Shown here one piece after another: positions 3,800 to 7,090 of a stretch of DNA of 10,192 nucleotides (positions within the stretch are counted from its first letter, which is position 1; each line of letters begins with the position of its first letter). The notes beneath the pieces are model-generated. The model saw nothing but the letters and a program-made list of their open reading frames with translations. It ran no database searches and was not told the DNA's origin. Origin of the DNA: a virus (taxonomy: Duplodnaviria; Heunggongvirae; Uroviricota; Caudoviricetes); the IMG/VR virus record IMGVR_UViG_2698536471_000005; one strand, written 5' to 3'. The translations under genes and the position numbers were made by a program.

Positions 3800-4402
3800 T
3801 CATGGCATAGCCATGAGCATTTTCACGTCCGCATCACCGTCTGCTGACGTCTGTGGCACGCCACCCTGTACCGCTGCCGGTGAATGGTTCGCCATGATGC
3901 GTTCAAACAGGGCGGTTGTGGATGCAGAGACCGGTTCTGCCTTACCTGATCCCGCAGCCAGCACAGCCCGGGCGCTCTCCACAGTCATTCCCGGGCAGGC
4001 AGCCAGCTGTTCAGCCTGCGCCTCAGCCCCTTTTGCCTCATCCAGTGCCATGATCTGATCACGGAGTGAGGGTCCGGCATCCGCCTGCGGTGAAGCAGCC
4101 AGGATCGGGCGGGCTTTTTCCACCGTCATCTCCGGCATCGCCGCCAGCGTTGCCGCCAGTTGTTCACGACCGTTCGCTTCTTCACACGCCATAATGCGAT
4201 CGGCTTCACTCTGCGTGGATGCCACCGGCTGCTGCGGTGCCGCCGCGGCCAGAATCGCCCGGGCCTGTTCAACGCTCATGCCCTGTTGTCCTGCCAGCAT
4301 CGTGGCAAGCTGTTCACGTCCTTTCGCTTCCTGGCATGTCAGGATCCCCATCACTCGCTGGTTCTCCTGCGCGGCGGCTTCCGTTGCAGTTAATTGCGGC
4401 AT
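3800..4402 (-). CDS. Nu3: Scaffolding protein Nu3 (in-frame internal start within C)
   Basis: Internal ATG (reverse complement of 4400-4402) preceded by a strong SD, AGGAGGCACT-ATG. Translation MPQLTATEAAAQENQRVMGILTCQEAKGRE... matches the position and sequence of lambda Nu3 (MTKETQS...ENSRIMGILNCEEAHGRE), which in lambda is translated in-frame from within C. Confidence 0.7.
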   Translation of the reverse strand: MPQLTATEAAAQENQRVMGILTCQEAKGREQLATMLAGQQGMSVEQARAILAAAAPQQPVASTQSEADRIMACEEANGREQLAATLAAMPEMTVEKARPILAASPQADAGPSLRDQIMALDEAKGAEAQAEQLAACPGMTVESARAVLAAGSGKAEPVSASTTALFERIMANHSPAAVQGGVPQTSADGDADVKMLMAMP

Positions 4403-5305
4403 AGTGCCTCCTCTGACATTACTGTTCAGCGCCGTGGCCATCACACTGATGGCATCCGACGCATTGACTAATTCATCCGCCAGCCCGGCATCAATGCCGG
4501 ACTGACCTTCAAAAACGGCGGCCTCTGTTCCCGTGACGGCATCAACAGACAGACCGGTAAACATGGCCACTTTTTCGGCAAACATCCGGCGCGCCGCATC
4601 AATGCGCTGCTGCATGTCCTGGCGAACCTCTGCCGGTAAGGCTTCAAACTGATTGCCATCCACCTTGTGCGCCCCTGAGTAAATCAGCGTGATATCCACA
4701 CCGGCCTGCGCCAGATGACCGGCATAGCTGACATGGCTCATCATCACGCCAATGGAGCCGATACGGGATGTCTGGGTAACCAGCCGTCGGGAGCAGGCCG
4801 ACGCCAGCAGCATGGCTGCAGAACAGGCCGTGTCATTGCACAGTGCCCAGACCGGCTTCTGCTGACGGAGGCGGTAAATCATGTCAGCGCAGTCAAACGC
4901 GCCGGCGGCCTGCCCGCCCGGACTGTCAATGTCCAGCAGTACGCCCCGCACCTGGCTATCCGCCATTGCCTGCTGAAGACAGGCGACAATGCCGTCATAG
5001 CCTGTCATTCCGGAAAATGGCCGCATACCCCCCAGCCGGTACACCAGCGTGCCGGTCACCGGCAGTACAGCAATACCGTTCACCACCCGGTAAACACGGG
5101 CCGGTCGTTTACCTCCGGCCATGTACTCGTCCGTTTCAGCCAGCATTCCGGGAGCATCAAGCTGTACCTGCTGCTGTGGTACCGAAAGACTTGCTGCCCC
5201 CATCTCGCGCCCGAGCGCGCAAAAGAAAACCCGCGCATAGGCGGGCTCCAGAAGCAGCGGTTCATTGAATGCTGCGGCAATAATGTGTGAAAGATTACGT
5301 CTCAC
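3800..5305 (-). CDS. C: Prohead protease / scaffold protein C (S49-type, ClpP-like), lengthened by internal repeats
   Basis: 501-aa ORF. N-terminal roughly 300 aa are collinear with remembered lambda gpC (AFNEPLLLEPAYARVFFCAL, NGIAVLPVTGTLV, SGMTGY, GAFDCADMI, KPVWAL, SRRLVTQTSRIGSIGVMMSH, ITLIYSGAHKVDGN, EAAVFEGQSGIDAGLADELVN). The C-terminal part carries three copies of the motif present once in lambda. Start overlaps the B stop. Confidence 0.92.
   Translation of the reverse strand: MRRNLSHIIAAAFNEPLLLEPAYARVFFCALGREMGAASLSVPQQQVQLDAPGMLAETDEYMAGGKRPARVYRVVNGIAVLPVTGTLVYRLGGMRPFSGMTGYDGIVACLQQAMADSQVRGVLLDIDSPGGQAAGAFDCADMIYRLRQQKPVWALCNDTACSAAMLLASACSRRLVTQTSRIGSIGVMMSHVSYAGHLAQAGVDITLIYSGAHKVDGNQFEALPAEVRQDMQQRIDAARRMFAEKVAMFTGLSVDAVTGTEAAVFEGQSGIDAGLADELVNASDAISVMATALNSNVRGGTMPQLTATEAAAQENQRVMGILTCQEAKGREQLATMLAGQQGMSVEQARAILAAAAPQQPVASTQSEADRIMACEEANGREQLAATLAAMPEMTVEKARPILAASPQADAGPSLRDQIMALDEAKGAEAQAEQLAACPGMTVESARAVLAAGSGKAEPVSASTTALFERIMANHSPAAVQGGVPQTSADGDADVKMLMAMP
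3917..4357 (-). repeat. Three degenerate tandem repeats (about 140-160 nt, 47-53 aa each) inside C/Nu3
   Basis: Protein-level repeats: RVMGILTCQEAKGREQLATMLAGQQGMSVEQARAILAAA / RIMACEEANGREQLAATLAAMPEMTVEKARPILAAS / QIMALDEAKGAEAQAEQLAACPGMTVESARAVLAAG. The DNA shows recurring cagc(t/g)gttcacg(a/t)cc(g/t)ttcgcttc. Lambda gpC/Nu3 as I recall has one copy (RIMGILNCEEAHGREEQARVLAETPGMTVKTARRILAAA). Boundaries are approximate. Confidence 0.7.
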
Positions 5306-6887
5306 GGGGTGTTGTCTCCTCTTCCGGCCTGCGACTCTCCGCTATCTGCTGCTGATACGCCTGCGCTATCCACACCGGACGTGAGAGTCCGGCTTTTTGC
5401 CGCTCTGCAGATTCCCTGACCTGCTGGCGGAAAATGTCCTGATAATCCTCGCCCATCAGCGCCAGCTCTTTCTCATACGTGCTCAGTCCGGCCTCAATGC
5501 GCATCACCGATTCCTGAACCTCCTTGAGCCCGTCAATGGCCATTCTTCCGGCACCAATCCACTCTGCCCGTGACCAGGCTGATCGCGCCTGATAAAAATC
5601 AAAACGCGCCCGTGGCGGACGGATAATCCCCCGAAGAAGTGCCTCTTCCAGCCAGCAGGAAAACATCTGCGTGGCCAGCCGGGCCGCAATAAATTTTCGC
5701 CGCCCCATAAAATAGCGCCACGACTCATTGGCAGAGGCCCTGGCACTTGAATAACTGACCTTCGAGTAATCACGGGACAACTGTTCGTAGGAAACGCCAA
5801 GACCGGCGGCGATATACCGCAGCAGCGCCTGTTCAAGCGCCGAAAATCCATTGTCTGAATCCTGCGCAGTCTGTAGTTTCAGATCATCCCCGGGGAAAAG
5901 GTGCGGAATTTTGACACCACCCAGCGTCACGTTATTCGTGTCATACCAGCTGGAGAACTTCTCCAGAATATTAATAAGCGGATTATCCTTCTGCCCCTGC
6001 GGCGCACCGGCGATATATTCAAAGGCCTTTTCGGTATCAAGGTCACTTTCAATCGTCGCTGCATACATGGCTTTCACAATGGCCGACTGAAGCTGTGTTG
6101 CCTGCAGGGAATCGAGCATCTTCAGCCGTTCCATGACGCTGTAAAACTGGTTGGCCCCACGGGTCTGCCCGTCCTCCACCGGCTCGAAAATATGCAGCAT
6201 GGCCGGACGCCCGGTGGGAAGTTCACGCGGGATCCGTTCCCATCGTCCACTCCCGAAGCGAGGAAAATCATCCTCACAGATATGGTACGCAACGGCACGG
6301 CCATATCGATCGACCTCCACCCCGGCCCGCAGAAAACGGTTCCCCATACCGTGTCCTGGCGTGTCCACCCGTTTCGGACTCACGGCTTTAAAACGCGTAC
6401 GGAATAACTGCGTGGTTTCCGTATCCCAGACCGGCTGCACAAAGATTTCGCCGTTAAACGCATGAACGCCCACACCTTCACGGATAAATTCCGTGAACGT
6501 GCGTTTTCCTTCCACGTCGATCTCGCCAGACATCCCTTCGGCGTATTCCGACCAGGCCGCCTCCACCTCATCGACAAAGCTTTTTGCTGCGGTCTCCCGC
6601 ATCCCCAGCCAGCGCCAGTTCGGACGGTAGCTGATAAGAAACATATGCCCGACAATGTGATCCTTATGCAGTGCCACCGCATTGGCCGCTATTCCGTTAT
6701 TGCGCACCAGATCATCTGCCCGGGCATTCCCCAGACGCAACGCGGGCAGCAGGGCCGCATCGGCACTCTGCGCCGGTGGCAACCACTCCGCCATTTGCCC
6801 GCCAAATCCTGCACCGCCCCCGTTGTAGCTGAGACTCTCACGAAGCGGAACGCCGTTCACATCAATCAGGACAGGCGTTCGTTTCAT
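5295..6887 (-). CDS. B: Portal protein B
   Basis: 530-aa ORF with GGGAGFGGQ, NARADDLVRNNG, FEPVEDGQTRGANQFYSVMERLKMLDSLQATQLQSAIVKAMYAATIES, LLRYIAAGLGVSYEQLSRDYS, GRMAIDGLKEVQESVMRIEAGLSTYEKE, collinear with remembered lambda gpB (533 aa). ATGA overlap with the W stop. Confidence 0.95.
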   Translation of the reverse strand: MKRTPVLIDVNGVPLRESLSYNGGGAGFGGQMAEWLPPAQSADAALLPALRLGNARADDLVRNNGIAANAVALHKDHIVGHMFLISYRPNWRWLGMRETAAKSFVDEVEAAWSEYAEGMSGEIDVEGKRTFTEFIREGVGVHAFNGEIFVQPVWDTETTQLFRTRFKAVSPKRVDTPGHGMGNRFLRAGVEVDRYGRAVAYHICEDDFPRFGSGRWERIPRELPTGRPAMLHIFEPVEDGQTRGANQFYSVMERLKMLDSLQATQLQSAIVKAMYAATIESDLDTEKAFEYIAGAPQGQKDNPLINILEKFSSWYDTNNVTLGGVKIPHLFPGDDLKLQTAQDSDNGFSALEQALLRYIAAGLGVSYEQLSRDYSKVSYSSARASANESWRYFMGRRKFIAARLATQMFSCWLEEALLRGIIRPPRARFDFYQARSAWSRAEWIGAGRMAIDGLKEVQESVMRIEAGLSTYEKELALMGEDYQDIFRQQVRESAERQKAGLSRPVWIAQAYQQQIAESRRPEEETTPRET

Positions 6888-7090
6888 AACCTCACTCCCA
6901 GCGGACGACGGCGACGCCGGGTTGTCCCCAGTACCGACTCCGCATCATTGATCGCCCGGTTAAGCTCATCCAGAGAAGCCGCCGTATATTCAATTCTGCG
7001 ACCATCTTTCTGGACAGACACCACCCGTTTACCGGTTAATAAATCAAGGCGCGCCTGACGCAGCGCCTGCAGTTCAGCGACTGTAACCAT
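6884..7090 (-). CDS. W: Head-tail joining (head completion) protein W
   Basis: 68-aa ORF MVTVAELQALRQARLDLLTGKRVVSVQKDGRRIEYTAASLDEL...RRRRRP, same length as and similar to remembered lambda gpW ([39 protein letters not shown]...). Confidence 0.9.
   Translation of the reverse strand: MVTVAELQALRQARLDLLTGKRVVSVQKDGRRIEYTAASLDELNRAINDAESVLGTTRRRRRPLGVRL

Follow-up and report, generated by a model that had tools for sequence, protein, structure and literature searches.

A triplicated protein module in the region shared by the prohead protease and predicted scaffold of a phage-21-like Escherichia coli prophage

We analyse a 10,192-nucleotide (nt) stretch of DNA from a virus of the Caudoviricetes (IMG/VR record IMGVR_UViG_2698536471_000005), referred to here as the window, and focus on its prohead protease/scaffold gene. 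This gene lies on the minus strand (3800..5305 in the open reading frame (ORF) list), starts with GTG and encodes 501 amino acids (aa), the C-terminal part of which carries three tandem copies of one protein unit. We propose that the unit is a repeated protein-interaction module common to the scaffold and the protease, and we assign our explanation as a whole, gene identity and history of the array included, a probability of about 0.6. The gene is near certainly the head protease/scaffold gene of a phage-21-like E. coli prophage. An initial annotation made from the letters had already called it a homologue of lambda C/Nu3, which its S49 protease domain and its identity to phage 21 gene 5 bear out.

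Unit 1 (RVMGILTCQEAKGREQLATMLAGQQGMSVEQARAILAAAA; 4232..4357, aa 317-358), unit 2 (DRIMACEEANGREQLAATLAAMPEMTVEKARPILAAS; 4088..4207, aa 367-406) and unit 3 (DQIMALDEAKGAEAQAEQLAACPGMTVESARAVLAAG; 3941..4063, aa 415-455), all on the minus strand, are recovered by a hidden Markov model (HMM) of the unit with E values of 2.8e-25, 9.7e-25 and 3.1e-24, respectively. Pairs of units reach local BLOSUM62 scores of 83-101, compared with 24-26 +/- 5 for shuffled sequences (z 11-16), and none of 2000 composition-preserving shuffles attains these scores. Two PHROG profiles, phrog_8399 ('head scaffolding protein') and phrog_8940 (lambda Nu3-like), each match three separate stretches and constitute independent support, as these profiles were made by others. 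The HMM and the shuffle-tested alignments uphold the earlier count of three units here against one in lambda, and the span first proposed for the repeats, 3917-4357, covers the array plus eight residues of the tail that follows it.

The repetition is strong in protein and weak in DNA. Units share 47-56% of their amino acids and 54-63% of their nucleotides, and residues that are identical between units use the same codon only about half of the time. Tandem Repeats Finder reported nothing in the array, and a DNA repeat search found there solely 15-nt families at a spacing of 150-153 nt. Given the low DNA identity and the lack of a Tandem Repeats Finder match, the repeat is a protein-level feature. 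The two extra units and their linkers add ~97 aa, and the linker between the internal methionine and unit 1 is ~37 aa shorter than in lambda, giving a net gain of 62 aa. The initial annotation was thus right to attribute the extra length of the protein to the repeats, and overlooked the shortened linker.

Unit 3 is followed by a C-terminal tail (3803..3940, minus strand, aa 456-501) that contains an 'ALFERIMANH' stub at 3884-3913, ends in ...DADVKMLMAMP and is predicted with low confidence; comparable tails follow the single unit of other family members. We considered ERIMANH (aa 468-474) as a truncated fourth copy and rejected it. Its self-similarity alone is not significant, and it is a family feature because lambda ('DRLM') and most family members ('LDxAM') have a counterpart behind their one unit.

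All three units lie within a nested ORF, the phage 21 gene 6 or Nu3 analogue (3800..4402, minus strand, 200 aa), which uses the same frame and stop codon as the protease gene and has its predicted start at an internal ATG (4402-4400; aa 302). A Shine-Dalgarno sequence, GAGGAGG (4407..4413, minus strand), can be read 6 nt upstream of this ATG; phage 21 records annotate the same GAGGAGG as the gene 6 ribosome binding site and the ATG at 4402 as the gene 6 start. Apart from the Gifsy-like and environmental sequences, the three-unit homologues that reach this position conserve the methionine, and several database ORFs begin exactly at its equivalent. The placing of the repeats downstream of an internal start at 4402 is therefore retained, with both ATG and GAGGAGG present. 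In full-length gp5 (501 aa), an S49 serine protease is continued by a C-terminal extension, and initiation at 4402 would yield gp6, a 200-aa scaffold composed solely of that extension. In lambda, a strong AGGAGG followed by ATG (~5321-5344, Met309 of C) aligns exactly with the phage 21 gene 6 start, and the RefSeq start of Nu3 at 5132 (Met239, within the protease domain) lacks a convincing Shine-Dalgarno sequence; the true start of lambda Nu3 may deserve a check.

The triplication itself is not new. The gene is 98.6-98.7% identical in nucleotides to that of phage 21 and its relatives ev017, 4A7, 1W, 3W and several PhiR phages. The phage 21 head operon record M81255.1 (8134 bp) lists the whole ORF as gene 5, the nested ORF as gene 6, and three repeat_regions, 'Tri1 box', 'Tri box' and 'Tri3 box', which correspond in the window to 4232-4335 (unit 1), 4085-4195 (unit 2) and 3941-4054 (unit 3). 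The note in the record reads 'function unknown; putative'. Because these boxes are annotated in M81255.1, on whose feature table our verdict rests, the triplication is already known and is no new kind of element; the earlier note described a real feature and missed this prior record. Phage 21 itself (M81255.1; genome OL657228.1) resembles the window in its nested 501-aa and 200-aa products and its three units. It differs in that the window holds a prophage version, linked to a terminase gene that carries an amber codon. The paper on the phage 21 head genes is reportedly that of Smith and Feiss from 1993.

Across the family, one unit is the norm. As query against 1.84 billion representatives clustered at 50% identity we used just the protease domain, which kept the ranking independent of unit number, and obtained 32,030 at E <= 0.001. 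Units were then counted by HMM in the best 150 matches. Among the 117 of these that are full-length (at least 400 aa), 82 carry one unit, none carries two, and a single Gifsy-like protein (P0094, 505 aa) carries three; the other 34 have no detectable unit and bear other C-terminal sequences or fusions instead. An HMM-free scan for internal repeats, in which proteins were split, aligned and scored against shuffles, singled out the window protein and P0094 as the only ones with strong repeats of the module, the other signals being low-complexity runs. In phage genome records, 20, Gifsy-1 among them, hold most of the length of the three-unit form, and lambda, 434, HK630, N15 and many other phages match through a single unit. 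This one-unit norm, among representatives and phage records alike, points to one unit as the ancestral or usual condition and to three as a condition derived in a single lineage, and the triplication is confined to the phage 21/Gifsy-1 lineage. The initial annotation would have fallen had internal repetition been absent or had three units been the common ancestral state; repetition is strong, and three is not the common state. Two further searches yielded little: a profile of 68 unit sequences, run against a word-indexed protein database, returned just 12 short E. coli fragments and was uninformative beyond S49 proteases, and most of the matches to the 200-aa scaffold part were incomplete proteins, though this second search helped to spot alleles. 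Separately, the C-terminal regions of some unit-less members (P0125, P0115, P0146, P0150, P0165) show an apparent doubled 'C-x-x-A-G...L' helical motif; as a second duplicated motif it was not significant (z ~2.8) and was set aside.

The triplication is old. Units 1, 2 and 3 are 81%, 73% and 66% identical, respectively, to the units at the same positions in Salmonella, Gifsy-like and environmental homologues; in the same comparison, they are 54-62% identical to their own neighbours. As each unit is closer to its positional orthologue than to its neighbours, the triplication predates the split of the E. coli, Salmonella, Gifsy-like and environmental lineages. Among 26 three-unit homologues, the fraction of sequences with the majority residue is 0.86, 0.81 and 0.75 in units 1-3, compared with 0.59-0.66 in the linkers and tail. 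All units share, with little or no variation, a core signature, A-x-G-R-E-x-x-A-x-x-L-A ... M-T/S-x-E-x-A-x-x-I/L-L. These patterns show that each unit is kept by selection at the protein level. The gpC homologue of Gifsy-1 and further S49 prohead proteases of Salmonella have three units in the same order and in positional orthology with the window, and their scaffold part is 53-65% identical to that of the window; their unit 3 retains the arginine of the G-R-E motif.

Lambda provides a further close comparison. Its head protease, C, contains in frame the translated scaffold Nu3, which is required for portal incorporation, and both C and Nu3 are eliminated by proteolysis ahead of DNA packaging. 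The lambda gpC/gpNu3 gene (NC_001416 4418-5737) resembles the window in an S49 domain that is 62% identical, in a nested in-frame scaffold ORF, and in its unit, post-unit stub, tail and gene neighbourhood. It differs in having a single unit (aa 360-399 of the 439-aa C protein) rather than three, a pre-unit linker that is ~37 aa longer, and a RefSeq Nu3 start at aa 239, within the protease domain. Links between Nu3 and E, Nu3 and itself, Nu3 and C, and Nu3 and the portal have been tabulated or reported for lambda, of which the Nu3-E link is a new yeast two-hybrid result that is not mapped to the unit (PMC3224144).

Structure prediction is consistent with a discrete module. When no alignment was supplied, AlphaFold2 modelled the units as helix-turn-helix-like, with modest confidence. 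With a 26-sequence alignment, it gave three short helices per unit at a predicted local distance difference test score (pLDDT) of ~80, unit 1 included, with the linkers below 67 and the tail at ~50; the predicted template modelling score (pTM) was 0.28. Unit pLDDT values of ~80 together with this low pTM point to units that are confidently predicted to fold and that have no fixed mutual arrangement. In this model, each copy would fold alone as a small three-helix bundle, joined by flexible linkers rich in proline, alanine and glutamine in the manner of beads on a string. Sequence search of the PDB gave no match below E 1, and Foldseek gave none at E <= 0.001. Structural likeness to staphylococcal protein A domains, GA modules and adhesin repeats is weak, with generic scores, no sequence similarity and unrelated biology, and we do not regard homology to protein A, GA or UBA-like three-helix bundles as supported by such scores.

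We propose that the unit is the protein-interaction module of the scaffold, which would contact the interior of the growing shell (the major capsid protein), fellow scaffold molecules or the two together. The reasoning is that the region common to protease and scaffold must hold the determinants of their interactions, and the unit is the sole element of the shared C-terminal region that aligns family-wide. Since the protease carries the same array, those sites would recruit it as well, and it would enter the prohead during assembly and later digest the scaffold. Three copies per chain would amount to built-in multivalency, whereas single-unit scaffolds such as lambda Nu3 would depend on self-association. 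We put the claim that the unit is an interaction module, with three copies offering up to three sites per chain, at slightly below even odds. The stronger version, in which each unit binds the major capsid protein (or portal) autonomously and the number of units per chain (one in lambda, three in phage 21, two, ~2.5 or four in natural alleles) sets scaffold valency, is doubtful. The P22 scaffold's C-terminal coat-binding domain, a helix-turn-helix, may serve as a functional analogue, being likewise a small helical scaffold module; for the window unit, contacts with the shell are proposed. No sequence or fold match between the two was detected. The P22 domain occurs once, is basic and occupies the extreme C-terminus, whereas the window units stand in tandem and are followed by a 46-aa tail; by residue count they are near-neutral to acidic.

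Natural variation in unit number bears directly on this proposal. We sorted close relatives (>80% identity) by length class. Beside the 501-aa form with three units, there are proteins of 482 aa (a 57-nt deletion that removes the second half of unit 2, leaving ~2.5 units), 451 aa (a 150-nt deletion that creates a unit 1/unit 2 hybrid), 452 aa (no unit 2), 472 aa (unit 2 without its first half, in Shigella) and 551 aa (a 150-nt tandem duplication that yields four units). Examples of the 482-, 451- and 551-aa alleles lie at 4123-4182 of locus L006, 3946-4005 of L007 and 3001-4656 of L008, in that order. Further alleles have in-frame deletions of 1-7 residues, mostly inside unit 2 and some in the linker between units 1 and 2, and unit 2 is the unit deleted or recombined in natural alleles. 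In the DNA alignment, junctions fall at microhomologies of 5-10 nt that are common to the units (GAAGCGAA, CTGGC, ATGAC-GTGGA). The 551-aa allele is less certain because its assembly has Ns at the junction. The array is thus still changing by unequal recombination at short homologies, giving alleles with two, ~2.5 and four units, and the position of the junctions at short inter-unit homologies lends support to the early idea of the repeats as a mark of intragenic recombination. Copy number may also influence procapsid assembly, as the initial annotation proposed.

These alleles differ in abundance. The 482-aa allele occurs in 3592 blocks of the assembly collection. Junction probes of 42-44 nt, which require near-exact matches and whose genome counts are therefore lower bounds, detect intact unit 2 in at least 1605 complete E. 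coli genomes and the 482-aa junction in at least 56. The tested 451-aa junction probe matched no complete genome, and 451-aa proteins are present in draft assemblies. A separate lineage encodes a 538-aa protein with four units, of which units 2-4 are mutually 79-89% identical; it is found in ~105 complete E. coli genomes (for example NZ_CP076704.1; locus L005, 5427-7043), where a lambda-like head module is followed by baseplate genes (V, W/gp25, J-like). Neither the 482-aa junction nor the 538-aa type was found among the isolated phages of the collection, and all isolated plaque-forming 21-like phages with a full-length gene match have three units. In a few longer proteins, P0333 (721 aa), P0337/P0339 (577 aa) and P0254 (657 aa), the frame runs on past unit 3 into sequence that resembles tail fibres, or a larger internal duplication brings the number of units to five; prophage rearrangement or faulty assembly is the probable cause.

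Several points weigh against an interaction module that is needed in three copies. Variant alleles adjoin full-length head genes. Since unit 2 can be wholly or half missing, or an extra unit present, in a head module that is otherwise intact, either three copies are not strictly required or the prophages that carry these alleles are defective. The near-invariant arginine is lost from unit 3 of the phage 21 lineage, which reads G-A-E (aa 426-428) where unit 3 of Salmonella and the family at large have G-R-E. The extreme C-terminal tail, rather than the unit, could be the capsid-binding element, by analogy with other scaffold/protease systems. Finally, expression of gp6 from 4402 is presumed from annotation.

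Chief among the rivals is neutral passage. The extra units would be the product of a tandem duplication in a flexible, tolerant part of the scaffold that drifted to fixation in one lineage; their number would be without functional consequence, and one unit, probably unit 1, would do the work. The in-frame alleles with two, ~2.5 and four units in intact-looking head modules are what this would predict, as is the gradient of conservation, in which unit 1 is best conserved and unit 3, with its lost arginine, least (0.86 versus 0.75). Moreover, lambda builds its head from a 62%-identical capsid protein with a single unit. Passengers would not, however, be expected to keep both positional orthology and the core signature, as units 2 and 3 do over E. 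coli, Salmonella and environmental homologues of 45-65% overall identity while the linkers diverge. Three units in every full-length-matched plaque-forming 21-like isolate, with the 482-aa junction and the 538-aa type in no isolate, also speak for retention, as does the excess of intact unit 2 over the 482-aa junction in complete genomes (1605 versus 56). On balance, we consider neutral passage unlikely, and favour the interaction module.

A second alternative holds that the units supply length or mass, maintaining a scaffold of ~200 aa, or spaced protease cleavage sites, rather than binding modules. Phage 21 gp6 (200 aa) and RefSeq-annotated lambda Nu3 (201 aa) do agree closely in length despite their different make-up, and in place of the extra units of the phage 21 type lambda has a linker that is ~37 aa longer. 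This agreement hinges on the lambda start at 5132, without a good Shine-Dalgarno sequence, when the strong AGGAGG and ATG that align with the phage 21 start lie ~70 codons downstream. In addition, natural alleles depart from the 501-aa form by -50 to +50 aa, and filler would not preserve so specific a motif, A-x-G-R-E ... M-T/S-x-E-x-A-x-x-I/L-L, in all copies through a long period of divergence. We judge it improbable.

A DNA-level element (protein-binding sites), or recent slippage or an assembly artefact, is disfavoured and has very little probability: a 2021 phage 21 record does mark two pattern matches in the region as 'CII binding site', both present in the window (TTGYNNNNNNTTGY matches at 4150-4163 and 4384-4397, plus strand), but the CII pattern occurs at chance (4 found versus 1.85 expected in the window; 23 of 200 shuffles reach 4), inter-unit DNA identity is just 54-63% with an empty Tandem Repeats Finder result, and the same three units recur in independent phage and genome sequences. 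The array holds no promoter-like or terminator-like site and the window no Rfam family, and we take the plus-strand ORFs across the array to be spurious antisense readings of the alanine-rich frame.

The identity of the gene rests on both its protease part and its neighbourhood. The phrog_53 profile ('head maturation protease') matches the 501-aa protein with an E value of 1.8e-227, and the Peptidase_S49 domain (Pfam PF01343, E 7.3e-35) spans 4427..4870 on the minus strand (aa 146-293); a Pfam search found no significant domain on the C-terminal 200 residues. TIGR00706 (SppA_dom) gave an E value of 3.2e-31, a match that stays below the curated cut-off of that family. In the alignment with lambda, Ser162 and Lys214 stand opposite Ser166 and Lys218; lambda Ser166 was reportedly identified as the gpC nucleophile by Medina and colleagues in 2010. 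On the minus strand, ORFs for a 530-aa portal protein, the 501-aa C protein, a 115-aa decoration protein and a 342-aa major capsid protein follow one another, and FI, FII, Z and U come after the capsid gene, in sizes and order those of the lambda head genes. Near-identical loci bear the Pfam labels Phage_portal_2, Peptidase_S49, HDPD and Phage_cap_E, and the head proteins of the window are 52-62% identical to those of lambda, the capsid protein 62%. The gene is 99.9% identical to many E. coli chromosomes, and 1866 of 5426 complete genomes match it over at least 80% of its length; in all, complete E. coli genomes contain 3254 places that match. In the terminase large-subunit gene of the window, an in-frame amber codon (TAG at 7875-7877, minus strand), where phage 21 has CAG (Gln), divides the gene into ORFs 7875..9059 and 7074..7868. 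Because of this codon, the prophage copy in the window is probably packaging-defective unless the amber codon is suppressed.

What our analysis adds to the Tri boxes of phage 21 is the one-unit norm of the family, the age and positional orthology of the units, an allelic series of two to four units, and the prediction of three-helix modules on flexible linkers. For annotation, it means that the 'S49 family peptidase' length classes of 451, 482, 501, 538 and 551 aa represent unit-number alleles and not errors. Throughout a very large family of phage head proteases, the module alone is conserved in the scaffold region, and lambda-like scaffolds are poorly understood relative to that of P22. If the module is the contact point of the scaffold, the contrast between one and three units, together with the alleles of two to four, would offer material for the study of lambda-like scaffolds. 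Should unit number indeed set scaffold valency, the near-isogenic allelic series in E. coli would represent a natural experiment on prohead nucleation, fidelity or size.
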